From positions 15,934,001 to 15,998,000 of the forward strand of contig NW_025963891.1 in assembly GCF_023055435.1 (NCBI RefSeq): a stretch of 64,000 nt of DNA, written 5' to 3'. The DNA comes from Haliotis rufescens (Eukaryota). Each line of letters starts with the position of its first letter. Position 1 is the first letter of the stretch. The notes beneath the pieces were generated by a model. That model was given only the letters and a program-made list of their open reading frames with translations. It was not told the origin of the DNA and did not search any database. A program made the position numbers and the translations under genes. This document shows positions 18,690 to 61,514 of this stretch, in pieces.

Positions 18690-19495
18690 TGACCTGAGGC
18701 AAGGCTGTGATTACTCTAGAGTGATTTGGGCCAAGACTGAGATTACTCTACAGTGATTTGTGCTAAGGTTGAGATTACTTTAGAGTGGTTTAGACCAAGG
18801 CTGAAATTACTCTAGAGTGACATGAGCCTAGGCTGAGATTACTCTAGAGTGACCTGGGCCTAGGCTGAGATAACTCTAGAGTGATTTGGGCCAATACTGA
18901 GATTACTCTACAGTGATTTTGGGCTAAGGTTGAGATTACTTTAGAGTGGTTTAGACCAAGGCTGAAATTACTCTAGAGTGACATGGGCCTAGGCTGAGAT
19001 TACTCTAGAGTGACCTGGGCCTACGGCTGAGATTACTCTAGAGTGACCTGGGCCTAGGCTGAGATAACTCTAGAGTGATTTGGGCCAATACTGAGATTAC
19101 TCTACAGTGATTTTGGGCTAAGGTTGAGATTACTTTAGAGTGGTTTAGACCAAGGCTGAAATTACTCTAGAGTGACCTGGGCCTAGGCTGAGGTTACTCT
19201 AGTATGTCTTGGGCCTTGGCTGAGATTACTTTAGTATGTCTTGGGCCTAGGATGAGATTACTTTAGTATGTCTTGGGCCTAGGATGAGATTACTTTAGTA
19301 TGTCTTGGGCCTAGGCTGAGATTACTTTAGTATGTCTTGGGCCTAGGATGAGATTACTCTAGGGTGACTTGGGCCGAGGTTGATATTACTTTAGGGTGGT
19401 TTAGGCCAAGGCTGAGATTACTCCAGAATGATTTGGGCTAAGGCTGAGATTACTCAAGATTTCTTTTGGCCAATGCTGAGATCAGGCTGGAGTGT
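18690..19495. repeat. 32-bp minisatellite (~25 copies) with 5-6-mer higher-order repeats
   Basis: Unit ggctgagattactctagagtgacctgggccta; HOR starts near 18721, 18881 and 19075. Confidence 0.95.
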
Positions 19496-19649
19496 TTTAA
19501 GCCTTGGCTCAGTTTTTAACTTTAATAATTATTGTGTTTCTTCGGACTTATGTTACTGCGCCATATATCAATACAAATTGTTGTTGCATCACTTTCTCAA
19601 ACATCCTGAACCGCGCTGTAAATGTGGTCACGACATTGATGTTCCGTTT

Positions 19650-19868: not shown

Positions 19869-21294
19869 TTTACATCAGACATATCTCAAATCGGAATATA
19901 CTCTTCTGTAATGTTCGAATTTTTTCAAGAAAGGCTTAATTTATTTTATATAGCCACCGCAAAAGAAAGTACACAGCCATGTGTGATGGCGGATTAATAT
20001 ACACTTGAAACAAGCAGGAAACTGTCATTCGACGGTGCTGTATTTAATAGGAGTATTAACGTTGTGGTTTGGACCTTAAGTTTGCAGTATTACGGCGACA
20101 CTAGTGTGTGCTTTATTTTCTTGCCCGGCAAGTTATAATTCCTCGACAAAATTCAGATGGAATTACCGGAATAACGAAACACATGAATTTTTTATCAAAC
20201 ATGAATTGACTTAGAGTATTGTACGTGTAAAGTAGTCATGGGGAACAACTGGTTTCAATGGTCTTTAATGGCAAATAATTCAAGCACGAGGACACACACA
20301 TTTATCAGCGTTGTTTGTTAAGTGTAGCTTTATCTAAAGAGCTGAAAAATGCATTCACACAGAAACTAAATGTTTGAAACAGCCACTTATTGTGAGAATG
20401 TATTATATATGACGTCACCAATTTTAAACAAAATGCCAAATCGGCATGTATGCTGTTACATTGCAGTGTAAGGTATTGTTAAACAATGTTGTAATTGTAT
20501 AACATTGTTTATATTGATATTTAGTTGAAGTTCATAGCAGTGTGTTTTAACAATTATTAGTTTTCAGGAATGTAGTTCTAACTTCAGTAAGCAGTGGTGT
20601 GGCAGTTACTATATAAGATGCTTCTGGAGTCAAGTGTAATCTGAAATCTTCCAGAACAGCTATAGGCTAATCCAACATGGTATGGATCTTTCTGGGAGGG
20701 ATTTAGGCTATATGAATGGGCGAAAACATGCATCTCACATTACATCAAGACCAGCGGTTGTGTGAAGATCACGTTTTCTCCTTGGATATCCAGCCTTGGC
20801 CTATTTTTGAAGCTTGACCACTGTTGCTGCGAGGTGAATATCATTATCCCTGACTTTATTGATTTTACCACTGCTTTTTGTTTTATACTGCCATTGTAAT
20901 TGAACTGTCATTGAACTTTGTACTGCCACTCTATTGTGAACTGCCATTGTAATTACTTTGCAGTAGTTTATATTGATTTGTGAACCGAGATTAGTTTTTA
21001 ATACAACTGTTAATAGTATCACATTTCTTTGTTGGTTGTTTGTTTCACATTGAATTCGTTTACGTATAGATTTCGGAGTTAACTTATTCTTTCATTATAG
21101 TCGACATGTCACAATGTTTGAACTTATTGAAACTAATTGTCACAGCGCTAAATGCGATCATCATCCTTGGTCAGCGTTGGTAACGTCGACTTGCAACACT
21201 GTGGACTTCTCCAACACAAACTGACACGCCGGGATACAAATGACATGATGTTCAAAACCGCGTTACCCAACTCAATCACTCGCAAAATATGCAG

Positions 21295-21648
21295 AGGTGA
21301 GGTGAAGTGGGCTTCAACGTCGCGTCTAAGATTATAAGACTTATATAGCGACGTGCATGCACGTGTATCTGTGTGTGTGGCAGCTTTTACTTGTCCGGAC
21401 TGATGCCGATTTATAGTGCCAGCTCACTGAGATACCATGCCGCAGTTTAACATGAATACCCCACTCAGACACAGTATACTGACTCCGAGTCGACCAGTCC
21501 TTGTTTTAGCCCCTTAATGCCGAGCGCCAGACAGGGTAACAACAAGTTCCATCTTTTAACGTCTTTTGGTTTGACGCGGCCGGGTATCGAACCCCGGACC
21601 TTCCGCTCTCGGGGCGAACGCTCTACCACTAGACCACGGAGGCGGTCT
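21295..21648 (-). mobile_element. Family B (Meta-domain-like) SINE, full length
   Basis: tRNA head, Meta-like core, (ACCTC)n tail, TSD caaa(a/t)tatgcaga. Confidence 0.93.
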
Positions 21649-23165: not shown

Positions 23166-23218
23166 CTGTATAGTGATTACCTTGTATATGCATCACCATG
23201 CCATATCGTCTTGGGGAC

Positions 23219-23568
23219 GACCGCCTCCGTGGTCTAGTGGTAGAGCGTCCGCCCGGAGAGCGGAAGGTCCGGGGTTCGATCCCCGGCCGCGTCATACAAA
23301 AAGACGTTAAAAGATGGTACTTGTTGTCTGGAGCTCGGCATTAAGGGACTAAAACAAGGACTGGTCGGCTCGGAGTCAGTATACTGTGTCTGAGTGGGAT
23401 ATTCATGTTAAGCTGCGGCATGGTATCTCAGTGAGCTAGCACTATAAATCGGCATCAGTCCGGACAAGTACAAGCAGCCACACACACACACACACACACA
23501 CGTACATGCACGTCGCTATATAAGCGCAATAATCTTTGACGCGACGTTTAACCCCATTTCACCTCACC
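23219..23568 (+). mobile_element. Family B SINE
   Basis: A box tggtctagtgg, B box ggttcgatccc, internal (CA)n, TSD tcgtcttgg(g/a)gac. Confidence 0.93.
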
Positions 23569-23634
23569 TCGTCTTGGAGACCGATCATTAGGTTTGTAGG
23601 TAGATTGTTTTGTTTGTTTGTTTTTTGCCATACA

Positions 23635-23901
23635 TTGGGTTTAACGCCGCTTTTAACATTATTCCAGTTATATCACGGCGTGTCAGCTTATTGTGGGAGG
23701 AAAGCCCGAAGTTATGCAGGTCTCAGACGTTTACCACTTTGGTGAAACCCACGAGCACGGGTATGGTGCTGGCAAACGTAGAAACATAATCGGGGCGAAC
23801 CGGGATTCGAACCCATAATCATAGGTTCCTGGCATACCAAAGGGACGCAACTCTGCACAGCGAATCGCGGCGCCTTAGGCGACTGGGCCACCAGTGCCCC
23901 C
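23635..23901 (-). mobile_element. Family C SINE (long tRNA-Leu-like head plus V-domain-like core)
   Basis: Reverse complement of 40183-40459. Confidence 0.9.
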
Positions 23902-25365
23902 TATCAATTGAAACTCATTAATTGGCACTCAGTACCGCGTCTACATCGGCAGTGTATAGCATAGCAACAAATGTGAAAAGAGAGTCGCTTTCAACAGTAT
24001 TTCAGTTATAAGTCTGTCAAGCCCAAAGTGAAAGTAGGTCGTAAAAGTGTAGCATTCTGATGAAACCACCAGCAGTTTGAAGTCACTTACGTGAACTATA
24101 CATAAAGTATACTTCTAATTCAATATCTCCACCAGATACAGTCTGGTAATGTCACACCATATGTGAAAATGAACCCATGGTACAACTTTCATCAGTTTAA
24201 TGCATGTGGTCTTTAGTCGCTGTCAAGATTTTCATGTCTTTTGGTGCCAAGGAAATATATTATTATTGATCATGAGAAGCTCATTACTGGCACAATGCAA
24301 CGTTGTGCAAAGGAGTCCCCCGCGGCTATCAAGAAACGACGACTGGGTTCGAATCCTAGATACACTCCGAGTATGATCCCTTATCTGCAAGTATCAGGTT
24401 GTTCTTATTGGGTTCACAATGCAATAAACGTCGACAACCTGTGTCACTTTGTACTTTCGTCTCATATTAATATGATCATGACCGTTGTGGTCCATTACGA
24501 CTTATCTTACCTCATTATAGGCTCATGGTACATACATACACAATGACTCTGCTATTAGAACTTTTAACGCACATGCTTTACATTTGTGCCTACACTGTTG
24601 TATGCTTCATTTGATGGAGATAAGAATATGAATAGATCTTCTGCGTTGCTGTTTAAATATAGAATTCTTGCTTTAGAGTATTAACAATTATTCCTTTCAT
24701 TATGAGATTATATCATTCAATTCTAAAGGTGAAATCAACAAGACCGAAACTTTGAAATGTTTGCTTTCCGGATACCCCACTACACATCATCCTTGTGTCC
24801 TTGCTATTTAAATGACGCATCTTCTCGTGAATTGTAATATTTGTTTCATCTCAGGCGCCATAAAATGTTCTTGGAATTCTTGGAACACTGTATTCTTCTT
24901 TGATACTGGTCCATTTTGGGTGCTTGTTAACAGCTGATTAGACGTTCAACAAAGTGTGTATATTGTTAAACGGTTTACGTTTTAATTTTAAAGAACTAGA
25001 AACGTGACAGGACAGATTGTGTTTAAATGATACGCATTTCTATGGACCTACTGTGTTTGAAAGAGGATCATTATAACGATATCAAACCACAACCCTTGAG
25101 ACTGAAACCATATATTTGCTTAACACTATCGTTTATACCTCCTTATCACTTATACATACATAATTAAAGTTATTTAAGTTTGAAGTTTTGAAGTATGGAA
25201 TATTGTTTCTTGTGTTCAGTCACACAATCACCCATTACATGCTTGGGACTCCGACTGACATCTTATGACATAGGGGCAATGCAGGTCGCTGTGCTGTGTT
25301 GCCTCCCTTTGGCATGCCAGGATCCAGTGATTGTGCATTTGGAATGAACATTATTATGATCCTTA

Positions 25366-25581: not shown

Positions 25582-26926
25582 TTATGATCCTTAGCCGGTC
25601 CTACCCATGTTCTTTTGTTTCACGAAATGGATATACATCATTTCAGGCTTCCTTCAACACTTAGCTGACACGCCATGATATAACTGAAATACATTCAAAG
25701 GCGGTGTAAACCCAAATAACTCCCTCACTGATACTAACCTTCAAAAAGGAGGTTAGCCAACAAGGTGGTCTTGAGTGATTGTTACTCCATTTGTTGTTCA
25801 CAATTAATCTCTGGACTGTCATGTTTTTTTTCACGAGAATGGTAGACATTTCTGGTTAGTGATGGTTTGTAACCTTTCAGCACCCGAACGATACAGTATC
25901 GTTCTTCATTGTCAAGACCGCGATACAGATTATGTTGTTTTGTTAACATTACGTTTTCTTGACGAACACTGACGCTGATTGAGTTAAGCATGATTGTTAT
26001 GCAGTAAATATTGTCATTCTTGTATATACGGAACATGTGTTACCTAGTTTGAATTAAGTACCATTTAACATACCATGGAAGTTAGCACTCATAACTTTAC
26101 CCGAACTTCACAACTGCTAAGTCTTATAAGGAATCACTCTTTCCCTTACACATATGCAATGTTTATGATTTTGCGCTGAGTTCATGCCTTTTGGTGAAAG
26201 AAAAGCTGTATGTTGATTAGTTGCGACAGGTTCAGATTCAATATACATGTAGTACTAAAACATCGGGCTAGAATCTTTTTTAAAAAAGACGTTTAATTTT
26301 TGTTTGTTTATTTGTCAAAGAGTTATTTATTTGCAGTTTAACCTTTGTTCAACATTTGTGGTGAACTCGTAAGTTCGGCGGAATAATAAGAATTTTGTTT
26401 TCCAGATTTCATATTCCAGTCTTTTATCGTTGCGGAATCCATACAATAATATTCGCCTCAGTAACAGAAGTAATTATGATATCTGATTGGGTATTCTAAT
26501 AAAGGCGACGGTTTCTTTAATTGTGTCTTCCTTGTCGTCAAACCTATCGCACTGTCGATGCTAAAACTCAAATGATAACTTAAAATATGCCAAGGGGAGA
26601 GTTAACATTCCTACACATCTCAGTCATGCAATGATCCCCGCATCGTGAGTTGTAGTGGTAAACGTGAAGGCAATTTGCAAATCTCTGACATACGTAAATG
26701 CTGCTATTTCCCACGAAAATACCATTGGAAAGTGTGGAATTTAGTTTTGGTAAACACTGTAACCATCATGATAGCAATTGGACACAATAATGATAATATC
26801 GGTTGATAGTAACTGTAATTCAGTACAATCGTTTAATAAATGATTAATCGATAAAGAACCATAGCCTCCAGAAGTATTGTTTGGGACACATTATACTCTT
26901 CAAATAGGATATTACTTGAAGACAGC

Positions 26927-27078
26927 GAGTGAGTGAGTATGGTTTTAGCAATATTCTAGCAATATCACGGCAGGGGACACCAGAAATGGGCTTCACACAT
27001 TGTACACATGTCGGGAATCGAACCCGGGTCTTCGGCGTGACGAGCGAACTCTTTAACCACTTGGGTACCCTACCGCCC
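26927..27078 (-). mobile_element. Family A SINE
   Basis: Full head, core and tail; TSD aagacag. Confidence 0.9.
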
Positions 27079-27223
27079 GTAAGACAGTAGATGATGTAGG
27101 AACAATTATAGACTATTATCAACACTGCTAAATAAAAGTATTATGATGTGGTTTCATTTTAATTATTAATGACCATCAGCTTTTAAAAGGGGGACTAGGT
27201 TGGGGTCAGGTGGCAGTGCTAGG

Positions 27224-27495
27224 TTGGTTGGTTGGTTGGTTGGTTGTTTTACGTCGCACGCAGAAATATTCCAGCTATATGACGGCAGTCTGTAAATAAT
27301 CGAGTCTGGACAAGTCAATCGAGTGATAAAATCACGAGCATCGATCCACGCAATTGGAATCGATGACATGCGTCAACCAGGTCAGCAAGCCTGACCACCC
27401 GATCCCGTTAGTCGCCTCTTACGACGAGCATAGTGGCCTTTTAGGACAAGCATAGGTTCTGAAGACCTATTCTACCCCGGATCTTCACGGGTCTA
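27224..27495 (-). mobile_element. Family D SINE-like element
   Basis: (GGTT)n tail; 10-bp TSD cagtgctagg. Confidence 0.9.
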
Positions 27496-28149
27496 CAGTG
27501 CTAGGAAGTAATCGATCTAGTATGACTATATCATTACCTGGAGACAGTACCTAATATCACACATGTAACGGAACGCTAAGACTGGAAACCTTGACTGGAT
27601 AGGACCAAACCATGAAACATTCATGGAGACTCTTTCTAAACCTTCAACATATGGCAAACTAAGCAACATGTTACATCAACGCGTGACTAACAATATGATT
27701 CGCTTAAAAGCGCGTTTAAATTTCAAGCTAGGAAATCTAAACGATGTAAAACGTCAACGCCATTATTATTGTTATTATTGATTACCCCCGAAATAGATTC
27801 CAGAAGGCTTAAAATGCGAAATAGCGGCTAAAATTATATGATAGGATCACTGAAAATCGGTGATGACACCAGGTGTTCGCGAAAAGGGTAAGCATGTCTC
27901 CTACGACGTAAAGAGATAAACGATATATTTTTATCACTAACTTTTCAGCAATCATATACTTGACAATACATAGTTGCATCCCATTTAATGGCAGATCTCC
28001 ACTGCGGGTGTTATGGAATATTTTACGCCTGGGCTTTTTGTCGCCCCATTTGGAAGTTCCGACGAATTGCTTTGTACAATTTCCTTGAAACAGCATCAGC
28101 AATGTATATATGCTTTTGATAAGGCTAAATCAAATGCCATCTGGACTAG

Positions 28150-28540
28150 AAGTTGTCGGACGATTAGGTGTCTCTCTTTGGCAGAGTGAATCCGGATGGG
28201 ACTCAACCCAAAAATGATCTAGAATATGTACTTCTCTAAGAAGAGTTATCCCAAATATGCCTGGTTCATTTGTTACATTTGACCACTTTCTAAATGGCAT
28301 TGAGTATCCATAGTTTTCGGCCATGGGTGCCGTACCAATTGACACTTGTCAGAGGGGTACTCAAAGTACGTGATCAAGACTACCAGTTGTCGGACTTTCA
28401 TTTGGAAGGCTCGGTGGCTGAGTGGGAGGCGATTAGATGCCTCACTTTGGCAGTGTGTGTTCGAATCCCGGTTGGGACTCCAAACAGTACTAGAGTTTGT
28501 ACTTTACTAAGAGAGTGTTATCCCAAATATAACATTAATT
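28150..28540. mobile_element. tRNA-headed, hammerhead-like-bearing ~270-bp repeat (about 1.4 tandem units)
   Basis: gttatcccaaatat recurs about 272 bp apart; tRNA-like boxes on +; CTGACAA...GAAA fold on - at 28300-28364; homologous to 41841-42379. Confidence 0.75.
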
Positions 28541-28639
28541 TGTTATTAAGGTGGAAGTTAGATTCACTGCGACAATTTGGTCTTCTTAGTCACTTTTTAT
28601 GAGAACGCATACGATCATGAGACAGGCGTAAAAGATATG

Positions 28640-29790: not shown

Positions 29791-31632
29791 ACTACTCAAA
29801 GTTTGCTAAGGATCACATCTTCAATGCAGCATGCAATTATGATATGAAGTCACATTGGAATAAAACACTTGTATACAATGATTAGGTAACCCCTCTGGAG
29901 CCACACTACCCCACTCAGAAGGTAAAGGCATGCTGTGACGGACACCATATGCACGTGACGCATGATAACCACAGTTGCCACCGCTGTGATTCGTTGTCAT
30001 TAGAACCTTGCACTCCGTTGTTTGAAAGCCTGACAAGCGTTGATTGCAGTTACTGAAAACAGAAATGCCCAATCAACGTCATTGACGTCGTTGGACAGTC
30101 GAGGATTTAGCCAGATGCGTAGGGAGGCTTGAAACTAGGGCAACACAACGCCAAGTTGCCAACGTCCTTGGTGTGAGTCAACGCCCGGTCTGCAGAGTAT
30201 GGAATCGGTATCAGACTCATGGTTCAGCTACCCAGCGACAAGGTGAGGTGAGGTGAAATGGGGTTTAACGTCGCGTCCAAGATTATTGCACTTATATAGC
30301 GACGTGCATGCACGTGTGTGTGTGTGTGTGGCTGCTTGTACTAGTCCTGACTGATGCCGATTTATAGTGCTAGCTCACTGAGATACCATGCCGCAGTTCA
30401 ACATGAATACACCACTCAGACACAGTATACTGACTCCGAGCCGACCAGTCCTTGTTTTAGCCCCTTAATGCCGATCGCCAGACAGGGTAACAACAAGTAC
30501 CATCTTTTAACGTCTTTTGGTATGACGCGGTCGGGGATCGAACCCCGGACCTTTCGCTCTCCAGGCGGACGCTCTACCACTAGACCACGGAGGCGGTCCC
30601 CCAGCGTCAAGGAGGTAGTCGTGAACGCTCCACCACACAGCGAGATGACCGGTTTCTCTTGCTCTCAGCAAGACGTCATCCCTTTGTGACGGCCACCGCG
30701 CTCAGAAATGAACAGTGGAACGCCACTTGAGTAAACATTGCAACTCAGACAGTCTGTAATCGCCTGCGGGAGGCTGGCCTTCGGTCAAGAAGAGCACGCA
30801 TTCGCATCCCTCTTACCTAGCGTAATAGGCAAGCACTTTTGGATTGGACGAGAGATCATGTCAAATTGACAATCAATGATCGGACATCCGTACTTTTCAC
30901 AGACGAGTCAAGGAACTGTTTAGACTTCACTGATCGCCGTGCTCGGGTGTGGCGTAGTGCAGGAGAGCGATTTCAGGATGCTAACGTATCCGAAAATGAC
31001 ATACGGGATTTGGCTCATTAATGGTTTGGGGTGGAATCAGCAGGGCTGGGAGACCCGATCTGAATGTGTTAGTGAGGGGCACGATGACAGGTGTGCGTTT
31101 CAGGGATGAGATCTTGGATGTTTACGTGAGACCGTATGCTGTTGCATATGGTCCTAACTTCATTCTCACCCAATCGTGCCAGAGTGGTTGATGCTTACCC
31201 TGAGCAAGAGAATCGTCCGTATGGAGTGGCCAACCTGATCGAACACCTTTGGAACATGCTTTAGGTGTCCATCTCACGTCGTCCTGTGTATCCAGGTTCT
31301 CTCCAAGAACTCGTAATTGCTCTCACCAAAGAGTGGATCAATTCCCCTTGGCATCCATCCAAACGCTTATTGGAAGCATGAGACGAAGGTGCCAGGCTGT
31401 CATCGCAAATGGTGGATCACATACCAGCTATCGACAGTTGTGTAATGCTCAATGATTTGTTGGCTGCTGTCATGATTACCTTACCGGTCGATTACGTGTT
31501 GCTTTGGCATTTTCAGCAACACATTCCAATCATTTCCTTTAAATTAAGCATATATCTACACAATTTTGTTATTTGTAGGTGTCATTGGCAATACTTTTTT
31601 TCATATTCGCAAAATGTTATCCTTAGAAAACT
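29791..31632 (+). mobile_element. Decayed Tc1-like transposon
   Basis: Transposase remnants (~30065-31430): HTH QRQVANVLGVSQ, VLFTDESR, VWR..GER, MVWGGIS, IEHLW, SMRRRCQAVI; TIR remnants agtttgctaaggat and atccttagaaaact; stops and frameshifts. Confidence 0.9.
30244..30598 (-). mobile_element. Family B SINE nested in the Tc1 transposase
   Basis: 13-bp TSD cccagcg(a/t)caagg. Confidence 0.95.
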
Positions 31633-33920: not shown

Positions 33921-34209
33921 GAGTGTGTGTGAGTGATTTGGGGTTAACGCCGCTTTTACAGTATTCCAGTTATATCGCGGCGTGTCAGCTTAATATGGGA
34001 GGAAAGCCCGAAGCCCGACTGATGCAGGTCTCAGACATTTACCACTTCGGTGAAACCCACGAGCACGGGTATGGTGCTGACAAACGTAGAAACATAATCG
34101 GGGCGAACCGGGATTCGAACCGACAATCATAGGTTTCACGCGTCCCCAAGGGACGCAAATCTGCACAGCGAATCGCGGCGCCTTAGACGACTGGGACACC
34201 TGTGCCCCC
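33921..34209 (-). mobile_element. Family C SINE
   Basis: Reverse complement of 40183-40459; imperfect TSD tatcaattgag/tattaactgag. Confidence 0.9.
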
Positions 34210-35891
34210 TATTAACTGAGACTCATTAATTGGCACTCAGTACCGCGTCTACATCGGCAGTGTATAGCATAGCAACAAATGTGAAAAGAGAGTCGCTTTC
34301 AACAGTATTTCAGTTATAAGTCTGGCCACCAGTTCCCCCCTGTTCAAAAAGACTATGACGTAGCCTTGAGCATGACGATTCCAATTCAGATTTCTACTTG
34401 AATGCACACATTGTCCATTGACGTGTTTGTGCATTTGCCTTGTGTACATTGGAGAGTGACTCCTTTGAGAAAGAATTTTACTGCACAATACCGCTGAATG
34501 AAGGAAAAACAATTTTATTTAACGCAAGATTGAGCTTTATTTCTCAAATGGACACCCCGGACGACAGTCAACGACAAAGAACAAAGTTTAACGCAAAGGA
34601 AACAAAATGATTTTGATGAAATGTTAGTAGGCTTCAGGGAAAGATGATGATTACTTCACGCCGTGGAAGTGTGAAATTAACTTGTATTATTTGGCCTTAT
34701 TCAAGTAACACCTGAGTAGCTTAATGATTTAGATACCTTATATTCTTCTTATACGAAGTTTTGGTACAGTCACTTGAACCACGTTCAGGCGTCCTGTAAA
34801 ATGATTACTTGTATCAACCAATATTACATTAGGATAATATTGCTGACTAGGTATCAGTAGTTATGTTGTCTTTGCTCGCATATAAAAAAAGCACCACACA
34901 AATAAAAAATAACAAAACAAAAGTTGATAACATAATGTCCGGCTGAAAAGAATAGTTTAATATCCTACCGATTTTCACATATATCCATCGAGAAACACAA
35001 TGAATGAGACGGTTTGGCTGATAGAACAATGGTGTGTTTGAGGATAACTGTATCTGTCAGTGTAACTTGTATCGCTAAATTACACTGCCGTGTAACATGC
35101 TGTTAGGGCATGTTTAATTGTGTTTATATGCTATTATATCAAACATATCATTCATTCCAGGTAGATAATGGTGCTCTATTGCATATATACTTCCGTATTT
35201 TACAACACAAGTCTGTCCATGGGTCCACAACATATATTCCATGATATTATGCAACTAAACAGAATAATTTATTTAAAATTTATATAAATAATAAAAAAAA
35301 TTATACTATTTAAATTTCATAAATATATGGTCTCCAGTTAGCAACTCCCAGGCCCAGGTCGGCCAACCTCTCTGGATGCTGTTCGAGGGTCAACTCCCGG
35401 CCAATACTAAGCTTTGTCCATTGATCTCTAGGGGGCAAATCACGGTCACACTGCCAGGTGCCACATACGCGACACATGTATGGTCAGCCTGCAATATCCC
35501 GCACCTCATCCACAATGTCACGTTCCAGTGATCAACCCGCCTTTGTCTAATTTTAAATATTGGCAGCTGACCAATCCTTGACATGTTGGCCATGGTACTA
35601 ATAGTCAAGCTGATGTTACCTGATTTGTATTGACGACGCTGTGAAAATTAAGATTGATATATTTAACTTACTTAACACAGGGGATAGATAAAACATATAC
35701 ATTCTCTGATAAAACCTAAACCCCGCCAAACTGCCTACGATACATTGGAATGATCAAATACCGCTTGTGTGGTCTTGTATTCAACGTTCCCGAATGTAAG
35801 TCGATGTATGTTTTAGATATATGTTATAAATTTAGCTAATATGTCTAGCGTCCTATGCCACAGTGTAATCTATCATATTTAAACAGTACAA

Positions 35892-36053
35892 GGGGCGGTC
35901 GGGTAGCCTAATGGTTAAACCGTTCGCTCGTCACGCCGAAGACCCGGGTTCGATTCCCGACATGGGTACAATGTGTGAAGCCCATTTCCGGTGTCCCCCG
36001 CCGTGATATTGCATGACCATTGCTAAAAGCGGCGTAAAACCAAACTCACTCAC
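35892..36053 (+). mobile_element. Family A SINE, full length
   Basis: ggggcggtcgggtagcctaatgg A box, ggttcgattccc B box, tail aaactcactc. Confidence 0.93.
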
Positions 36054-36439
36054 AAATATTCATTCCATCGGCACAGATGAATAGTATCTCTGATAAAAGG
36101 ATTAATTGACCAAATAACTCCATGTTATGTTAGAGTTTTGTTCTAAAAGGCATCATTACCAAGTACATGACCTAATTGGTTTAACTTCTCGTCTAATACT
36201 GAAAATAACTCTGCATTCAGCTTCCTGATGAACAAAGAGTATGAATCCGACTGCATGCTATTCCATAGATGAGTGAGTGAGTTAATATTTAACGTAGCTG
36301 CAGTTCGCACAATACTATGTGGTTAACATTATAAACGCGAATCTGAAATAAACTTAATTAGAATTTGCTATTATAACATTATGGATCAAAAGGGCGTTAT
36401 ATCAAATTAGACACCAAACTATTTGGTATCTCTCGGAGG

Positions 36440-37459: not shown

Positions 37460-37705
37460 GTTTATGTTTGTTTGTATGTTATTTAACGCCACACTCAGCA
37501 ATATTCAAGCTACATGTACATGTATATGACGGCGGTCTGTAAATAATCGAGTCTGGACAAGACAATCCAGTGATTGACGTCATGAGCATCGATCCATCCA
37601 ATTGGGATACGATGACATGCATCAAGGAAGTCAGCGAGCCTGACCACCCGATCTTACGACAAGCACAGTCGCTTTTTATTGCAAGCATGGGTTGCTGAAG
37701 ACCTT
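37460..37705 (-). mobile_element. Family D SINE-like element
   Basis: Family core; (GTTT)n tail. Confidence 0.85.
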
Positions 37706-39260: not shown

Positions 39261-39793
39261 CTAAAAATATGTTTGCGACACTAGAAGGCGGAAGTAAAGA
39301 GCAATGTACATTACACAATGGAAGTAATTTCGTCTTGTTACATACCATTGACCTCATATTATTTTATGAACTGAACATTATTTGTGTAACGTTGTATCTG
39401 CTCTCATTATCCGCAGTGGGATCTCTTCAGGTTGAACATTCGGTAAGGTTTCTGAAAGAATTATTTTAAAGAAATTCTTTTTTCCTTATGTTTAAATTTT
39501 GAAAGTGATGTCCTGATTAACAGAGTTTGTGTATACTACTGACATTATGCAGACATAAACAGGGAGATATCTGAGATACATTTCAGGGAATAGGCCATAT
39601 GAGAGACATGTGTAGTAAATAGGATTCCACAAGGAATGTCAGATAGTGAAGGAGAAACGCAGATGGACAGATGCACGTTCAGAGAAAAGAGGATAAAGAT
39701 GGGATGGAAAGAACGGGAAAGAGACCTAAGGAAAGAAGAGATAATCTAACAGAAATAAACAAATATACACACAAACACATGCACAGGGACATC

Positions 39794-39951
39794 GAGTGAG
39801 TGAGTTTGGTTGTACGCCGCTTTGAGTAATATTCCAGCAATAGGCGGGGCACCAAAACTAGGCTTCACATATTGTACCCATGTCGGGAATCGAACCCGGG
39901 TCTTCGGCGTGACGAGCGAAAGCTTTAACCACTGGGCTACCCGACCGCCCC
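39794..39951 (-). mobile_element. Family A SINE
   Basis: TSD cacagggacat. Confidence 0.9.
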
Positions 39952-40182
39952 CACAGGGACATTGAGAGAGTTAGTTAGAGAAACAGAAAGATAGAGCCAT
40001 CTGATGTCTGAGAGTCGAGCCAAAGTTCACAGTCAAAGCTCTGCTCAACAAACTGAGTCCCCCTTGGCCACCATTAGACATAGCAATACATAGACATTAT
40101 CAGTCGAGTGTGTTCCCCTATCGTAAATATCATATATAACTAATACAAATTATATAATATAATTTTTCTTTCTGGTATATGA

Positions 40183-40459
40183 GGGGGCACGGGTGGCCTA
40201 GTCGTCTAAGGCAGCGCGATTCGCTGTGCAGAGTCGCGTCCCTTGGGCACGCCAGAAACCTATGATTGTGGGTTCAAATCCCGGTTCGCCCCGATTATGT
40301 TTCTAGATTTGTCAGCACCATACCCGTGCTCGTGGGTTTCACCGAAGTGGTAAACGTCTCATACCTGAATCACTTCGGTCTTTCCTCCCACATTAAGCTG
40401 ACACGCTGCGATATATTTGGAATACTGTTAAAAGTGGCGTTAAACCCAACTCACTCAAC
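40183..40459 (+). mobile_element. Family C SINE, full length
   Basis: A box gtggcctagtcgtctaaggc, B box ggttcaaatccc, gtgggtttc...tttcctcccac core, TSD tctg(g/a)tatat. Confidence 0.92.
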
Positions 40460-41497: not shown

Positions 41498-41722
41498 ATA
41501 GCGACGTGGCTGCTTGTTCTAGTCCGGACTAAAGTCCATTTTTATAAGGCTAGCCCACTTCATGCAGCACTCCGAAACGACTTGAGTTATCCTGTTAATG
41601 CCGAACTCTAGGCAGGGTAACAACAAATGCCATATGTTAACAACTGTTGGTATGACGCGGCTGGGGATCAAACCGCCAACCTTTCTCTCTCCCGCGGGCA
41701 GTCGCTCCAACGCACCAGACCA
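41498..41722 (-). mobile_element. Degenerate family B SINE
   Basis: cagggtaacaacaa, ggtatgacgcgg motifs. Confidence 0.75.
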
Positions 41723-41840
41723 GCGAAACGGGGAGTTTTCATTATCCTGCATTCCTGTTGTGTCCACATGTCAGCATAACTGTCGACATAATTGTAAGTG
41801 AAACTGTTGTTACGAGGTGATTTCCAAACTAAACGTGAAG

Positions 41841-42379
41841 TGTAACGAATGTTATATTTGGGATAACACTTTCTGAGTGAAGTACAGATTTGCGTACCTT
41901 TCTGGGTTGAGTCCTGTCTGGGATTCGAACCCACACTGCCAGAATGAGGCACCTAATCGCCAGCACACAAAGTCAGCGATATAACCCACTCAGCCACCGA
42001 GGCTTCCACAAAAATGAAAGTCCGACGACTGGTAGTCTAGATCACATACTTTGTATACCCCTCTGACAAGTGTAAATTGGCACGGCTCCCATGGCCGAAA
42101 GCTATAAACACGCAGTGCCATTTAGAAAGTGGTCAAATGTAACAAATGTTCTATTTGGGATAACACTTTCTCAGTAAAGTATAGATACTTTATAAGGTTG
42201 AGTCCCGTCCGGTGTCAGATCGCTGACTTAGTGTGCTGGCGATTAGGTGACTCACTCTGGCAGTGTTGGTTCGAATACCGGACGTGACTCAACCCAAAAA
42301 CAAAAAAAGTACTAGAATCTGTACTTTACTCAGAAAGTGTTATCCCAAATATAACATTTGTTACATTTGGCCACTTTTT
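41841..42379. mobile_element. tRNA-headed, hammerhead-like-bearing 297-bp repeat: partial tandem plus inverted segment
   Basis: tgtaac.aatgtt.tatttgggataacac at 41841 and 42138; inverted copy 42218-42379; CTGACAA at 42063 and GAAA at 42097. Confidence 0.8.
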
Positions 42380-43019
42380 GTATGTTCTGAATTGTGTATT
42401 TAAAACGTGGTCAACCCAGAAATCGTGAAATCAGTGAACAGCCACACAAGATCAATGAATAAATGACAACCAATATTGAAACACAAAGGTTTAGGTTCAC
42501 CCACGATGCAATACAATGGGTCACATACATGTGTCAGCAGCAATAAATAACAGATCCTATAACAAATCTCAGTGCACTCACGAATGTCTAGAATAAAATC
42601 ACTGTTGCATGCATTGAAATAGGTACATTAATCCGGAAGCTGGCGGTTAGTGGGTGTTGTCAGTTCGGTATCCCGTCAGCACTCGGCAAGTCGGGTCGTA
42701 AAAGCCATCTCGCTCTTACATATAGGCACAGACAGCCTTCTAGAAACGGTCACCTTTTGAAACTGCTTGAGCGAGCGAACTGAAGGGAGGTAACTCTCAA
42801 CTGCCGTTGGAATGCCACTAAAAGGAAAACAACTAGCCACATGTTATGAGTGTTTCATTGCCTCCACCAACAATCATAAAAAACAACGTTTAATATCTTC
42901 TGCTACAAAAGAATGTTTACGGCATAATGCTAACAGACTGATCTACAGCTAGTCAAATGATATGTGGTTATATTGTTTAAAAGAAACACACACGGTTGAA
43001 TATGTGAATGTTGTTGATC

Positions 43020-44318: not shown

Positions 44319-45710
44319 CACTCTTCAAAAAAAAGAAAAGAGACGCACAGGTAGTATGCAGTTCATTGAACCTGACTACACGAAAAGTCCGGTATATAAG
44401 TTGGATATATGTTATTGGAAAATTTTGATGGCCTGATATTCGTCAAAACGCAGCCATTGTCGATGTCTCAAACGGCGTTGTTTTCACACTTGTCCAAAAA
44501 TGTCATGGAGGATAACAAAAAAGCACAATGCACGTGCACGTTATGGCATTCGTAAGTCGTGGTAGTGGCTATAAAAAGGCAAGCATAAGCCAATTATTTG
44601 TCATTCAATTGTCAACATTTTCAAGTTAAAAAATGCCGAGACTCAGCGCTGCCGATCGGAACATCGCCATTGGACGTCTCCAAAGAGGGGAATCGCAGTC
44701 TTCTGTTGCACGCCACTTCAACGTCCACAGTTCAATTCCACTGCAGACCGTCTGAGAATCGGCTGACCAAGAGTTACCACTCCTGCACTGGATCGCTACA
44801 TTCGACTGTTCCACTTACGTCATAGCAATGCCACAGCTACGGAGAGGAGGCTGAGGAGGATATCGGACCAGACTGTCAGGTACCATTTTCGCGAGGCTCG
44901 CGACCCAGAAGACCAGTTATCGTCACTGTTTTGCAAAAGATCCATCGACAGCGACGCTTGCGTTGGTGCCATACCTTACAGCCTTGGCATTTGAGAAACT
45001 GGAGACGAGGGTGGTTTAGCGTTGAATCACGATTTCTTCTTCACCGGTTAGATGGAAGACAACGTGTTTATCGTCGTCGAAATGAGCGTTTTGCCACACA
45101 CTGTGTACGTCAATTCGACAATTTCGGTGGCGGTAATGTCATGGTGTGGGGGCCATATCCTTCACAACGCGATTGGACTTGATTGTGGTTTAGAGAAATT
45201 TGACAGCAAATCGCTACTTGAATCAAATTCTTCAACCTCACCTTCTTCCAATCATTGACCGCCAGAGGGAGCTGTTTCAACAGGACAACGCTCCACCGCA
45301 CACAGCTCGTGTCACGGTAGACTACCATAATGCCAATCTTCAGATCTCAACCCAAACGAACATCTCTGGGATGAACTCGATCAACGTGTACGTCAACGTC
45401 AGAACACGCCACATACAGTCCCACAACTGTCCAGCGCGTTACCAGCAGAATGGCGCAGATTTCCGCAGGAGATGCAGAGCCGTGATTGCTGCAAGGGCGG
45501 TCACACGAGATACTGAGTTCAGCGCAACCTTGTAGCCTTATGTGACAAGACAATGAACAGTTTTCATTGCCTTTGGACAACGACAATATGTGACTATAGA
45601 GCTCCTAAATTTCATATTTGTATCTATGATATTGAATTAAATATAGCGACTTTATAAGGTACAATAAATTTACTAAAAGTCTAGCTGTGCGTTTCTTATT
45701 TTGAAGAGTG
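44319..45710 (+). mobile_element. Tc1-like transposon, both ends present, transposase decayed
   Basis: TIRs cactcttcaaaa..acgcac and gtgcgtttcttattttgaagagtg with TA TSDs; transposase ~44633-45515 (MPRLSAADRNIAIGRLQ, WFS.ESRF, GGG.VMVWG, FQQDNAPPH); splits duplication block C-B. Confidence 0.93.
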
Positions 45711-46577
45711 TAATGCCATATCTTTCCAAGAAAAAAAACAAGGGAATCTTAATGAAGAAAAAGATCAATCAACTTCAAAGTCTAACAAATATATGATCAT
45801 GAAACACACATATATCTACAACAGTTGATCACATGCACAAGTAAGGTGAGCTCCCTTCAACTGATTACAGCACTGAGTCAAAAGTGATTCGTCACTCTTT
45901 TGTCTCGAAAATGTGTTTTGTTGGAACCATTTGTAGCAATAATGAGTTCCTTTCATACCAATGTATCAGGGTGTGAGGGGAACCATGAGTGAGTGAGCTA
46001 TCACTCATCAGGCGAGGGACTTTATGTTCTAAGTGGGTCTAGAAGACGGCAGCAAAGAGTAGTGTTCACTGGAAGTAATATATCTCCTTGTTACAAATCA
46101 ATTCCCACACACGATTGCACGAACGTGGCCTTTCTTGAGTATTTTGGTGTCAGCTCTCATATGAATGTAAACAGTAGAGTCTGTTCGCCGGGACTACCAG
46201 TAAGAATCCGTAGGAATGAAACGCTTTAGACCTGTTCTATTTCAGAAAACGATAACCGGATTAAAACATTACATAGTGAAGAAAAGTTATGTAATGGTGT
46301 TGCCATTTCACAGATAGAAACCGGGAAATATAATTAACAACTGAACTTCATGGAGTAAGGGCCAAACTGCATGAACGTCAGAGCGTGCAAGGAAAAAGTT
46401 ACCATGAGTTTTACACCACAAGCAGGTACCTCGTGGGACGTTTCTTCGATAGGTGTGATGTAGTGATTGTGTACACAGTCGAATAACTACCACCCAAATC
46501 GCAGACAAAAACAGATTCGCAAAACAAACTCAAGTCCCTCAGTCACAGTGATAGTGTGACTTTAAGTACATGGAATA

Positions 46578-46720
46578 GGGGCGGTCGGTAACCTGGTGGT
46601 TAAAGCGTTCGCTCGTCACGCCGAAGACGTGGTTCGATTCACAACATGGGCACAATGTGTGCAGCCAATTTCTGGTGTCCCCCGCCGTGATATTGCTAAA
46701 AGCGGCGTAAAACCAAATTC
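46578..46720 (+). mobile_element. Family A SINE
   Basis: Head, core and tail. Confidence 0.88.
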
Positions 46721-47353
46721 ATCTGCCCATTCAATAGAGCTGACACGTTCAACGCTATCGCAGAACGTGTTGTAACTGAACGTGTGACGATTAGGTGTTT
46801 GTCATCATTGCTGAACTTTTCGGCCATTTAAAAGTGATTATAAGTATGCATGAAAAAGGTTCTAAGGTAAATCTATAGATAACTTGCAGAGTGCATAAAG
46901 TGTTCGTTTATTATCGTTTTTCTTCTGTTCACTTGGTTCGGGCAAAGCGGGGATATTCTTAAATCACGACCGAGCGAAAGAAACTCTTTGACGTTTTTTC
47001 ATTGTAAATATAATTGTAAACATATTTGTTCAAGATAAGCGTGATCAGGTAATCAAATAAAAGCGTCAAAACCCATTCCATCTTAAAAAAAGAGTAATAT
47101 TTGTGAATCACTATCAAATAGTAATGACACCAGGTGGTCGGGAAACGGTACAAGTATCCTTCCCCATCGCTGACACCTGCAACAAACACGCACAAAGGAG
47201 AGTCAAATGATTAAACACGGGAACATGTGGTCCAAGTCAAAATAGGGAGTCGTAACTGACTCCACTATTAAAGCTGTTGAGATGAATTGAAAGACATATC
47301 AGATAACGTCTTTAAACCAGATAATGAACCACAGAAACAGTCTCTTGTGCCTG

Positions 47354-51849: not shown

Positions 51850-53037
51850 TGGACAGCACTGCGAGGAAATAGGCTGGTTTGGGTACCACTGTTCATGTTA
51901 ACGGCATGCACTGCGAGGAAGTACCCTGGTTCGGGTGACACTATCAATGTTACCGGTACCCAGGTGCAGGTACCACTATTCATGTTACCGGCAAGCACTG
52001 CGAGGAGGTAGGCTCGTTCTGGTGACACTATCAATGTTACCGGTACCCTGGTTCGGCTGCCCCTGTTCAAGTTATCAGCATCCACTGCGAGGAAGTACCC
52101 TGGTTCTGGTGACATTATCCATGTTACCGGTACTCAGGTGCAGGTACCACAATTTATGTTACCGGCAAGCACTGCGAGGAGGTAGGCTCGTTCTGGTGAC
52201 ACTATCAATGTTACCGGTACCCTGGTTCGGCTGCCCCTGTTCAAGTTACCAGCATCCACTGCGAGGAAATACCCTGGTTCGGCTGCCCCTGTTCAAGTTA
52301 CCAGCATCCACTGCGAGGAAGTACCCTGGTTCGGGTGCCCCTGTTCAAGTTACCAGCATCCACTGCGAGGAACTAGGCTGGTTCGGGTGCCGCAATTCAT
52401 GTTACCGGCATGCACTGCGAGGAGGTAGGCTCGTTCTGGTGACACTATCAATGTTACCGGTACCCTGGTTCGGCTGCCCCTGTTCAAGTTACCAGCATCC
52501 ACTGCGAGGAAGTACCCTGGTTCTGGTGACATTATCCATGTTACCGGTACTCAGGTGCAGGTACCACAATTTATGTTACCGGCAAGCACTGTGAGGAGGT
52601 AGGCTCGTTCTGGTGACACTATCAATGTTACCGGTACCCTGGTTCGGCTGCCCCTGTTCAAGTTACCAGCATCCACTGCGAGGAAGTACCCTGGTTCGGG
52701 TGCCCCTGTTCAAGTTACCAGCATCCACTGCGAGGAAGTACCCTGGTTCGGTCGCCTCTGTTCAAGTTACCAGCATCCACTGCGAGGAAGTACCCTGGTT
52801 CGGGTGCCCCTGTTCAAGTTACCAGCATCCACTGTGAGGAAGTACCCTGGTTCGGGTGCCCCTGTTCAAGTTACCAGTATCCACTGTGAGGAAGTACCCT
52901 GGTTCGGGTGCCCCTGTTCAAGTAACCAGCATCCACTGCGAGGAACTAGGCTGGTTCGGGTGCCGCAATTCATGTTACCGGCATGCACTGCGAGGAAGTA
53001 GGCTGGCTCGGGTGCCACTGTTCATGTAACCGGTACC
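51850..53037. repeat. Complex 52-bp minisatellite with 174-bp higher-order units
   Basis: Unit cactgcgaggaagtaccctggttcgggtgcccctgttcaagttaccagcatc (52257, 52309, 52361); HOR at 51996/52170 and 52414/52588. Confidence 0.95.
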
Positions 53038-53039
53038 CT

Positions 53040-57329: not shown

Positions 57330-57491
57330 GTGAGTGAGTATGGTTTTACGCCGCTTTTAGCAATATCCCAGCAATATCAGGGCGGGGGACACTAGAAATG
57401 GGCTTCACACAATGTACCCATGTCAGGAATCGAACCCAGGTCTTCGGCGTGACAAGCGAACGCTTCAACTACTAGGCTACCCGACCGCCCC
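57330..57491 (-). mobile_element. Family A SINE
   Basis: TSD aatggcaatac. Confidence 0.92.
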
Positions 57492-57632
57492 AATGGCAAT
57501 ACGAATGATTCGTGGGTATAAATATACCGCTGATAACGTGGAAGCGTTAGAGAACATTTTGTGTGTATGTAATATTAGTTGTGAAGTTGAGTGTGTATAC
57601 TTAATACATTCTATATGAACACTTAGCTTATC

Positions 57633-57983
57633 GACCGCCTCTGTGGTCTACTGGTAGAGCGTCCGCCCGGAGAGCGGAAGGTCCGGGGTTCGGTCCCCGA
57701 CCGCGTCATACCAAAAGACGTTAAAAGATGGTACTTGTTGTTACCCTGTCAGGCGCTCGGCATTAAGGGGCTAAAACAAGGACTGGTCGGCTCGGAGTCA
57801 GTATACTGTGTCTGAGTGGGATATTCATGTAAAACTGCGGCATGGTATCTGAGTGTGCTAGCACTATAAATAGGCATCAGTCCGGACTAGTACAAGCAGC
57901 CACACACACATACGCGTGCATGCACGTCGCTATATAAGTGCAATAATCGTGGACGCGACGTTTCACCTCACCTCACCTCACCT
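57633..57983 (+). mobile_element. Family B SINE, full length
   Basis: 13-bp TSD cacttagcttatc; (CACCT)n tail. Confidence 0.95.
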
Positions 57984-58005
57984 CACTTAGCTTATCATGG
58001 TCATG

Positions 58006-58268
58006 GACCCGCGAAGATCTGGGTTAGAATAGATCTTCAGCAACCCATGCTTGCCGTAAAATGCGACTATGCTTGTCGTAAGAGGCGACTAACTGGATCG
58101 GATGTACAGACTTGCTAACTTGGTTGATGCATGTCATCGTATCCCAACTGCGTTGATGGATGCTCATAATGTCAATCACTGGGTTGTCCTGTCCAGACGC
58201 GATTATTTACAGACCGCCGTCATATAGCTGGAATATTGCTGAGTACGGCGTTAAACAACAAACAAACA
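58006..58268 (+). mobile_element. Family D SINE-like element
   Basis: gacccgcgaagatct 5' end; (AAAC)n tail. Confidence 0.88.
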
Positions 58269-58454
58269 ATATAATAGTCTTGACAGTAACAATTTAACGT
58301 TTGATCGCTACATGTATCCACATATAGTCCAGTGCCCGCACCCTTTGATGGATCTATACATTTGCTCTCTGTAAACCTTGTGGCTTGCATGACACCAAGT
58401 TTGCTACACAATACCAGCCTACCGAAGCCGAACGAGGGTTTTACACTCTGGACA

Positions 58455-59780: not shown

Positions 59781-60916
59781 CGAAGTGTAACTGAAAAGTT
59801 ATGAGCCAAACACTGACGGATGTATAGCACACTCTTAACAGCTTGCATGTATTAAGTACAATACACATGACATGGACACAGTCTGCATTTAAACCAAATA
59901 CACACTCAGGCAACATATTGTTGATTAAATTGGACGCAATTGCTACCGTGCTGTCATCATGTAGCTCCAAAGCCACCCATGCGAACATGGTGTTAACTTT
60001 AGGTGATGGTTCAGTAGAGTTCAAGAGGGGAAGAGTGAGCCTCAAAGATGATTCAAAATCAACTGCTATCACTTAGGAAAAAGGTTGATATCATACTCGA
60101 TACATGTACAAATGATATGATTGTGGATGATCAACCACTCACCACACGCCACATATCTATTTAGTGGGCATCTCTCGAGGGAGAATTGACGACATTCCGA
60201 GGAATGAACTTGTTATGACAAAGGTTTCAGCACGTTGGGTTCCAGGGGTTCTGCCTCGCCAGGTTCATCATCTCTCGCGAAATATGTCGTTTTGAAGCTG
60301 ACCCAGCTGATGCTGATGAGCAATTTGCAGTCATGGATGAGCTTAGGCTCACCACCATCAGTTAGACACTAAACAACAGTCAACAGAAGACACATCTAAG
60401 ATCTCCTCCCCCAAAGAAGGCAATGTCTCTTCCAACAGCTGGAAAGGTGATGGCTTCGGTTTTCTGGAATTCAAAGGGAATCCGATTGGTGGACTACCTC
60501 TCGAAAGACAGACTATTAAGGGCCAATGTTATGCTGATCTGCAAAGGCTACTGCGTGAGAATATGAAGGCTAAACGTCGTGAAAAACTCGCTAAAGTTAT
60601 GTTATACCACCAGAACAATGCGCTTGTGAACAAGTCTGAAATCGCCATGGTTGCAATGCATGACTGTTGCTTCAATTTGGTACGGTCCATTTCCATCTCT
60701 TCTCAAACTTAAAATTGAATCGTCTGGGAAAGTATGTAACTATGCAATTGACGATGTTGTCAATTCTGTTGCAGAGGACTTTAAACACCACCAGGAGGAA
60801 GCCTTCTACTCCAGTGGGATGAAAGTGTGTGGACCTCGGTTGGGATTGTGAAAACATATTAGAAACTATCTCCATTAACACAGTTCATCCTAGATGAACT
60901 TTTCAGCCACCCCGCG
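59781..60916 (+). mobile_element. Decayed mariner transposon
   Basis: TIR remnants cgaagtgtaactgaaaagtt and aacttttcagccaccccgcg+TA; motifs EFKRGR.SLKDD, KVSARWVP, SPPPKKA, AGKVMASVFW, HQNNA. Confidence 0.88.
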
Positions 60917-60931
60917 TATATTTAACAACTG

Positions 60932-61216
60932 ACTGAGTGAGTGAGTTGGGTTTAACGCCGTTTTTAACAGTATTCCAGTTATATCACGGCGCGTCAGCTT
61001 AATGTGGGAGGAAAGCCCCAAGTGATGCAGGTCTCTGATGTTTACCACTTCGGTGAAACCCACGAGCACGGGTATGGTGCTGACAAACCAAGAAACATAA
61101 TCGGGTTGAACCGGGATTTGATGCCACAATCATAGGTTTCTGGCGTGCCCAAGGGACGCAACACTGCACAGCGAATCGCGGCACCGTAAACGACTAAGAC
61201 GGCCACCCGTGCCCCC
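60932..61216 (-). mobile_element. Family C SINE
   Basis: Full length; TSD about tta(a)caactga. Confidence 0.9.
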
Positions 61217-61514
61217 TTTACAACTGAGAATCGCAGTAAATGTTTTTAAGGCGACATATGTGTTAGAGTATAGTTGACATTGCTATATCACATAACGACA
61301 GTTTCTGGACAAGCAGTGACGTTTTTACGGTAACCTAAATCGCTCCTCTCTAAACACCTACCTCGACAGACAATAAAAAGCGCCCCTGGATGTAATTGTA
61401 AGAACGACAATACTCATTTCATATATACTGATATCGGTACATAATAATCCTTTGTCTATACAGTTTCAAAAAGCTATTTTCATTTTTTTTATGCAACGTA
61501 TCTGTCTAGTTAAT

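Follow-up and report, generated by a model that had tools for sequence, protein, structure and literature searches.

What kind of element carries a tRNA-like head on one strand and a hammerhead-like motif on the other, and leaves its copies as a partial tandem beside an inverted segment? The question is raised by a 297-bp repeat in the stretch of Haliotis rufescens DNA analyzed here (64,000 nucleotides; the window). The original prediction had described a non-autonomous RNA element mobilized by Penelope-like elements (PLEs), transcribed by RNA polymerase III (Pol III) in one polarity and possibly cleaving itself in the other.

Anatomy of the insertion

Self-comparison of the window returned both repeats on which that description was built: a direct repeat with a spacing of 297 nt (41835-41889 against 42132-42186, 87%), and an inverted partial copy with arms at 41838-41980 and 42219-42368 (85%, E 7e-44). 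The left end of the element was refined to 41838, and the tail of the inverted copy extends to 42400. The parts of this insertion (locus A) and of a second copy in the window (locus B) are as follows.

41838-42400, locus A, one insertion: full unit, 5'-truncated tandem, inverted copy and one-sided tail
41830-41837, no strand, left copy of a probable 9-bp target-site duplication (TSD), one A short in the window
41838-42134, minus, A1, complete unit of 297 bp, bounded on the left by the family's main fixed end, the 3' end in tRNA sense
42135-42212, minus, A2, 5'-truncated upstream copy, a pLTR-like partial tandem
42217-42368, plus, A3, inverted 5'-truncated copy, head-to-head with A2 and beginning within the tRNA head
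42369-42400, plus, tail of 32 nt, at one end only, matching family positions about 42107-42134
42401-42409, no strand, right copy of the probable TSD
42124-42171, both strands, somewhat better on plus, stem-loop across the unit junction; the main fixed end lies in the apical portion
28140-28546, plus (tRNA sense), locus B: full unit (B1) with 22-nt and 4-nt deletions, plus a direct partial tandem (B2)

The state of the family was read from sequencing runs. Fourteen DNA-type or untyped runs, labeled as three organisms, contain 43-60% of the sampled words. Contigs matched to the stretch at 80% likeness numbered at least 20,001 in run X6, 13,261 in X12, which bears another organism label, and 809 in X17; this last run is RNA by guess only, and its 809 contigs, being without strand information, give no evidence on expression. 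In the small-RNA run X21 no reads matched the stretch, which likewise gives no evidence on expression.

On the minus strand, locus A reads as inverted truncated copy, truncated tandem, full copy and fixed end at 41838, and a single probable TSD encloses all three copies. Its flanks (41830-41837 and 42401-42409) share seven contiguous matches, a result equaled by 237 of 200,000 random pairs. One X6 contig has an extra A after 41830 (depth 57.4 of 57.4), which makes the duplication 9/9, and one X12 contig has the same extra A at a depth of 9.75 of 33.9. The 32-nt tail is the family sequence that follows the fixed end, including a 10-nt exact match to family positions 42107-42116; A1 and B1 end without it. 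In three runs, loose ends cluster at 42363-42368, the equivalent of the fixed end, and a second time just before 42116, where family sequence is kept to about 42103-42106 (18 of 1,537 rows).

By self-comparison, a single unit has no terminal inverted repeats, and an inverted adjoining copy was found at one of the two loci in the window. The AT content of three flanks is 0.57-0.60, against 0.60 for the window, and the consensus letters at loose ends are AT-rich. The hairpin at the fixed end folds at -14.6 (z -3.9) on the plus strand and at -10.1 (z -1.9) on the minus strand. The target site (41830-41840 and 42401-42414) resembles the element's own junction around 42126-42137, a likeness of letters that suggests microhomology-aided priming at the fixed end. 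At the junction between A2 and A3 (42210-42217), one possible interpretation is 3 nt of microhomology to the beginning of the tRNA head and, after it, a short deletion, in which case the start of A3 would be close to the predicted 5' end of the RNA.

A tRNA-derived promoter with an adjoining predicted terminator

The predicted transcription signals all lie on the minus strand.

41909-42003, minus, tRNA-derived head with a long variable arm; A box 41986-41996, B box 41921-41931
42004-42009, minus, predicted Pol III leader of 6 nt, with the start placed at about 42009 by its distance from the A box
42010-42014, minus, T5 run that forms the apex of the rod described below and is a predicted Pol III terminator

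The tRNA-like head that had been recognized on this strand was called by ARAGORN at a relaxed score (41909-42004); at default settings the program called no tRNA in the window. Rfam, run on both loci in their genomic arrangement, gave only chance-level matches at E<=10, neither tRNA nor hammerhead. Both boxes are intact in the majority state across run contigs, and this type-2 promoter is consistent with the predicted Pol III transcription of one polarity.

The T5 run is the unit's sole run of four or more T on the minus strand and stands directly upstream of the leader and the first base of the tRNA; a lone T-run at that place occurred in about 2.4% of shuffles. Across the start site, summed depth falls to 0.56 (X6), 0.49 (X12) and 0.35 (X17), and 4 of 24 joint ends fall within 42003-42012, where 0.37 would be expected (12 rows of 363), with the caveat that the A run may itself attract alignment ends. 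The junction of T5 and leader shows no indel at 10% or more and no local dip in depth in the run contigs. At both loci the head is internal to the genomic copy, and neither locus has an A tail or a simple-repeat tail.

A predicted panhandle on the tRNA-sense strand

The sequence beyond the T5 run mirrors the head.

42014-42075, minus, mirror arm, a diverged inverted copy of the tRNA head; predicted pairing with 41931-42009 through 55 long-range pairs

With majority letters from run contigs applied, the 60 bases upstream of the head align with it at 46 identities in 65 columns, which none of 2,000 shuffles equaled. When the real sequence of locus A was folded (41930-42075), the minus strand gave -63.5 kcal/mol (z -5.94, 0 of 200 shuffles) and the plus strand -30.2 kcal/mol (z -1.70, 12 of 200). 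Of the 19 mismatches between arm and head, 13 are G-U on the minus strand and 1 on the plus strand (p 0.002), an asymmetry that argues for RNA pairing being maintained. In the unit opened at 42009, the first base is paired, four U residues overhang and the rod pairs have probabilities of 0.97-1.0. Pol III RNAs typically have a terminal stem and a U tail, and on these predicted folds the unit resembles a complete Pol III transcript closed by a terminal panhandle and present in the genome in circularly permuted form.

Relative to the majority state, locus A keeps 54 of the 55 rod pairs; in locus B 31 are intact, 2 are broken and 22 are lost to gaps. At the pair 41943/42062 both sides are altered in X12 (20% and 33%) compared with about 1.3% and 1.6% in X6, and the double change yields G-C, the two changes being unphased. 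Taken singly, alternative letters at paired rod positions keep the pair in four of eight cases and break it in the other four.

Locus B and the abundance of the family

Locus B lies in the opposite orientation to locus A, and no TSD was seen there. B1 lacks 4 nt exactly at the join of T5 and leader. At locus B the tandem runs on beyond the start site and enters the arm across a deletion of about 61 nt, so that its template exceeded a single pass from one start; the start site is crossed twice in this locus. A full copy preceded by a 5'-truncated tandem thus occurs as A1 with A2 and as B1 with B2, and the junction has about 6 x 10^5 summed depth in X6. Both loci have in common the 130 bp upstream of the head together with the tandem junction (5-6 x 10^5 summed depth).

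In X6 the summed depth is 0.5-1.6 million over the unit, compared with 57 in unique flank, a ratio that suggests copies on the order of 10^4, summed contig depth being no copy count. Variants at 41943, 42054, 42062 and 42144 are skewed between X12 and X6, which suggests subfamilies. Pattern scans, with two patterns each, had no matches in metagenome, genome and viral collections. Pfam, applied to 7 of the 41 open reading frames, returned a single match, below threshold, and neither an RT nor a GIY-YIG domain.

The hammerhead-like motif

On the plus strand, the parts of a type-I hammerhead stand in the order and at the places that the original prediction had named.

42052-42115, plus, hammerhead-like motif; distal helix 42052-58/42109-15, predicted cut 42104/42105
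42063-42069, plus, hammerhead-like core with C3 and A8 (42068)
42070-42083, plus, extra hairpin, a 14-nt insert between A9 and stem II
42084-42096, plus, stem II of 4 bp, with G10.1-C11.1 directly before GAAA
42097-42100, plus, GAAA, followed by a palindromic minimal stem III

The 3' half is close to the known form: G12 A13 A14 A15.1, U16.1, H17 and a short palindromic stem III are present at 42097-42104, the palindrome being lost in locus B. Elsewhere the motif departs from it. C3 faces A8 at both loci and in at least 90% of X6 depth, so the expected 3-8 base pair is absent, and the A that had been noticed at the G8 position is the state of the family in X6, not decay. All four A>G places reported for X6 lie outside A8; X12 and X17 each have one further such place, reported without its location. 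Two hairpins in the stem II region (42070-42083 and 42084-42096) had also been correctly described, and the first of these, the 14-nt insert, keeps stem II from closing directly after A9. Positions N1.1-N2.1 are U-U, mispairs follow, and only the distal 7-bp helix of stem I is formed; in folds of the whole plus-strand unit, stem I and the extra hairpin have a pair probability of about 0 and stem II has 0.76-1.0. Lunse et al. are said to have described dimeric PLE hammerhead variants, which could include variants with A8.

A palindromic minimal stem III is reported for PLE and metazoan type-I hammerheads in the accessible text of PMC4209133 and PMC6765202. According to the available sections of these two sources and of PMC3088659, the natural change at the 3-8 pair is U3-A8, in which both sides are altered, and an excerpt of PMC11167929 reports that single changes of C3 or G8 abolish the anole ribozyme. 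Candidates with a core change or a mispair beside the core are discarded in the part of PMC3088659 at hand, with tested exceptions kept; since the motif has U-U at N1.1-N2.1 and mispairs in proximal stem I, it would fail those filters.

Much of the core can be accounted for from the other strand. Six of its seven bases pair there with the variable arm of the tRNA, the core being the mirror of that arm, and 42068 (A8) is a bulged base in the rod, where nothing prevents a G. A descriptor fitted after the motif had been seen matches locus B but not locus A, whose own stem I has decayed, and matched none of 40 shuffles of the window; the hammerhead-like order is therefore more than plain chance, its 5' half being otherwise explained as a tRNA-arm mirror. 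With the core held fixed, the remaining features arose in 446-2,303 of 200,000 shuffles (0.2-1.2%). A relaxed descriptor matched three places in the window, namely locus A, locus B and an unrelated place at 27850, and on the tRNA-sense strand neither the fitted nor the relaxed descriptor found a hammerhead in either locus. Distal stem I forms 7 bp when the majority letters are used, and its pairing survives a double change in locus B; at 42112 the compensating letter of locus B makes up at most 1-2.5% of aligned depth, a figure that may miss such copies if they fail to align. The tail ends within about 2 nt of the predicted cut site, and hairpins outside the rod lean to the plus strand. Special conservation of the motif was considered as evidence and rejected, equally long variant-free stretches being found elsewhere in the unit.

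The working variant hammerhead that had been proposed thus fares less well than the parts list. The C3/A8 core, the U-U positions, the stem I probability of about 0 and the mirrored tRNA arm speak against it; in its favor are the shuffles with a fixed core and the position of the tail end, close to the predicted cut. Judged by its letters and predicted folds, the motif is doubtful as an active ribozyme; it could perhaps be a real but dead relic, a reading we hold only tentatively. Probably it is inactive or a relic, and it is not needed for the mechanism proposed below. The case is also a caution for ribozyme mining: a tRNA arm, mirrored, can give rise to a hammerhead core.

Proposed mechanism

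We favor, at a probability of roughly 0.6, a high-copy non-coding repeat that is transcribed by Pol III from the minus strand and copied by a Penelope-like RT across joined RNA ends. The insertion has three anatomical features of PLEs: the pLTR tandem, the inverted 5'-truncated copy and the 30-40-bp one-sided tail. Together with the probable TSD, these agree with the earlier proposal of a non-autonomous, PLE-mobilized RNA element, a dependence that is read here from anatomy. From the polarity of PLE insertions, the likely template is the minus (tRNA-sense) strand, not the hammerhead strand; this polarity, the rod and the terminator beside the start site had all been missed by the original prediction. 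The available part of PMC3846280 itself raises antisense templates for PLEs.

The transcript would begin near 42009 in an upstream copy and end at the next T5 run, and would then be exactly one unit long, with its first base paired, a U overhang, and its 5' and 3' ends joined in the long stem. By analogy with anole Poseidon, the PLE enzyme may start at either of two internal sites about 30-35 nt apart, which would give copies with and without the tail. Of the copies extended as far as the tRNA head, about half would stop at the 5' end of the RNA. The others would go on into the arm, either by a template jump or on a ligated circle, helped by the panhandle, or on a multimer made by read-through of the terminator. 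We weigh the panhandle jump or circle and the read-through multimer about equally, the evidence not separating them. The faithful T5 junction argues against sloppy end-jumping, from which ragged joints would be expected, and favors either an exact circle or read-through of the terminator. A transcribable gene would be restored in copies whose tandem is at least about 170 bp long. The plus strand would be the first cDNA strand, and it is on this strand that the fixed-end hairpin folds better. This mechanism leaves two things unexplained, the hammerhead-like features and the ending of the tail so close to the cut site.

A more ambitious version, which we offer tentatively, is that PLE tandems can form here in the absence of a ribozyme: the 55-bp, G-U-rich panhandle would let the join be crossed and would yield circularly permuted, self-regenerating copies, a SINE that is permuted with respect to its own RNA. 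Bolder still, and in our judgment very unlikely, the opposite strand would also keep a non-canonical hammerhead that sets the end of the tail. The ribozyme claim is the weakest part of the whole; what merits testing is the permuted Pol III panhandle.

Alternative explanations

An active variant hammerhead on the plus strand, dimeric or protein-assisted, could itself cut plus-strand multimers into 297-nt monomers or circles, the opposite strand being the product of Pol III. Such a two-polarity retrozyme would account for the correct order of parts, the G-C-closed 4-bp stem II and palindromic minimal stem III, the 7-bp distal stem I kept by the double change in locus B, the non-core features found in just 446-2,303 of 200,000 shuffles, the tail end about 2 nt from the cut and the hairpins that favor the plus strand outside the rod. 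A need for protein has a parallel in the anole PLE hammerhead, which requires one to cleave (PMC11167929, in the portion available). We nevertheless consider it unlikely. A8 with C3 is the family state in X6, leaving room for other letters in X12 and X17; in the accessible text of the sources cited above, the known natural variant is U3-A8, single changes abolish the anole ribozyme, and that ribozyme is dispensable for insertion in vitro. In addition, stem I, with U-U at N1.1-N2.1 and further mispairs, has a probability of about 0, six of the seven core bases are explained by their pairing, on the other strand, with the tRNA arm, locus B's compensating letter at 42112 is rare, and the descriptor was fitted post hoc.

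Two other explanations dispense with Pol III or with PLEs. The element could be PLE-mobilized and expressed as multimers by host or tandem read-through (Pol II), with a vestigial tRNA promoter and a rod that is an old fold-back hairpin. PLEs are indeed described as transcribed in tandem multimers (excerpts of PMC11167929 and of PMC4209133/PMC6765202), palindromes are described at PLE 5' junctions in the accessible part of PMC3846280, and the T5 junction is faithfully copied in most matched contigs. A vestigial promoter and an old hairpin are hard to square, however, with A and B boxes that the majority state keeps intact, a rod that opens exactly at leader and terminator, a depth step and breakpoints at the predicted start, and a G-U asymmetry that argues for maintained RNA pairing; we regard read-through expression as quite unlikely. 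Highly improbable, to our mind, is an ordinary LINE-dependent tRNA SINE of about 170 bp that was nested or rearranged, or else a DNA-mobilized (MITE or Helitron-type) repeat. The tRNA head, the fixed 3' end and the 5' truncation resemble those of a SINE, roughly half of the depth ends at the head, and several ordinary tRNA SINE families share the window. Yet both loci share, at 5-6 x 10^5 depth, the tandem junction and the 130 bp that precede the head, there is no simple-repeat or A tail, one probable TSD surrounds three copies with a one-sided tail and a head-to-head inversion, and the single unit has none of the terminal inverted repeats of a MITE-type repeat. Classification of the element as a hammerhead, a retrozyme or a classical SINE was rejected, the defining features of each failing.

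Comparison with known systems

The closest parallels are among PLEs. In the accessible text of PMC8557442 and its preprint, PLE insertions have a truncated copy before the full copy, an inverted truncated copy on the 5' side and, at one end, a tail of 30-40 bp; examples from Adineta in an excerpt of PMC3846280 have a 31-bp tail and TSDs of 8-10 bp; and the tail of anole Poseidon corresponds to the interval separating two internal sites where reverse transcription starts (PMC11167929, available part). PLEs and their non-autonomous derivatives, such as the Chlamys-dependent MRC1, have the same pLTR, inverted 5'-truncated copy, one-sided tail and fixed 3' end, and pLTR-forming non-autonomous elements are already known from Chlamydomonas (PMC8557442, same portion). 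Unlike PLEs, the present 297-bp unit has no open reading frame and contains a tRNA-derived Pol III promoter and terminator. Its hammerhead-like motif lies opposite to the inferred template and overlaps the tail end, whereas that of anole Poseidon is in sense, about 85-90 nt upstream of the first start site, as far as the available text of PMC11167929 describes it.

Schistosoma SM-alpha, as summarized in the accessible part of a review (PMC6765202), is likewise a short repeat with a Pol III promoter, a tandem arrangement in which the upstream promoter transcribes the next copy, and a hammerhead motif. In Schistosoma a single transcript carries promoter and ribozyme, and cleavage is established; the present motif is antisense and non-canonical, and what appears to define the unit is its start site, terminator and panhandle. 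Metazoan non-LTR retrozymes, in the excerpts of PMC7229834 and PMC7761336, are also non-coding, 170-400 nt long, self-paired as RNA, proposed to be mobilized by PLEs and found in molluscs, with self-paired circles known from mussels. Retrozymes have an active type-I hammerhead and circular RNA of the same polarity, whereas here the core is C3/A8 and the best fold is on the other strand; the same excerpts describe no tRNA-derived promoter for them. The mollusc tRNA SINEs MESC, V, Nin and LP (PMC4758252, in part) share the tRNA head with A and B boxes and the high copy number. Compared by description only, the present element differs from them in its internal head, its lack of a simple-repeat tail and its PLE-type anatomy; the available text of PMC4758252 mentions neither Penelope nor inversion nor hammerhead.

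In the accessible portions of PMC7151607, PMC8490949, PMC10294476 and PMC11203168 there is nothing on the element. Across the titles, abstract openings and excerpts covered, no tRNA-derived permuted panhandle element with PLE anatomy was found; supplements and repeat databases, where the family may be deposited under a neutral name, lie beyond that search. The element also suggests a class of tRNA-derived repeats that SINE annotation would mis-trim, the head being internal. How PLEs make partial tandems and tails is still open, and the first in vitro system leaves those steps unvalidated, according to the available text of PMC11167929. A 297-nt, high-copy passenger with no open reading frame, for which start, terminator and end-pairing stem are predicted and two end sites are mapped, is a minimal substrate, which makes end-jumping, circular template and read-through directly testable.

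Other repeats in the window

A tRNA-headed SINE family of about 360 bp occurs at 21294-21647, 23212-23576, 30239-30603 and 57632-57986, and a decayed copy of it (41581-41722) lies about 115 bp to the left of the element. A second tRNA-like SINE family is present at 23635-24016, 33926-34324, 40182-40457 and 60934-61232; in two of its copies the similarity continues for about 100 bp beyond the head, which may thus be internal in this family as well. Further SINE-like families were seen at 2048-2246, 26921-27081, 35867-36058, 39788-39951, 46574-46721 and 57330-57494 (the third) and at 17613-17883, 27228-27493, 37461-37704 and 58006-58269 (the fourth). These two have short simple-repeat tails and a similar 3' end, and the third presumably resembles abalone SINEs. 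The broken frames at 44826-45535 and 60347-60712 have motifs that we take to be like those of Tc1/mariner transposase; Pfam gave no match for either at E<=0.01. Three minisatellite arrays (10977-12250, 18671-19527 and 51857-53039) have self-match offsets of 86, 96/160 and 174 bp, respectively, and an imperfect 160-bp palindrome (71%) spans 4829-4990.
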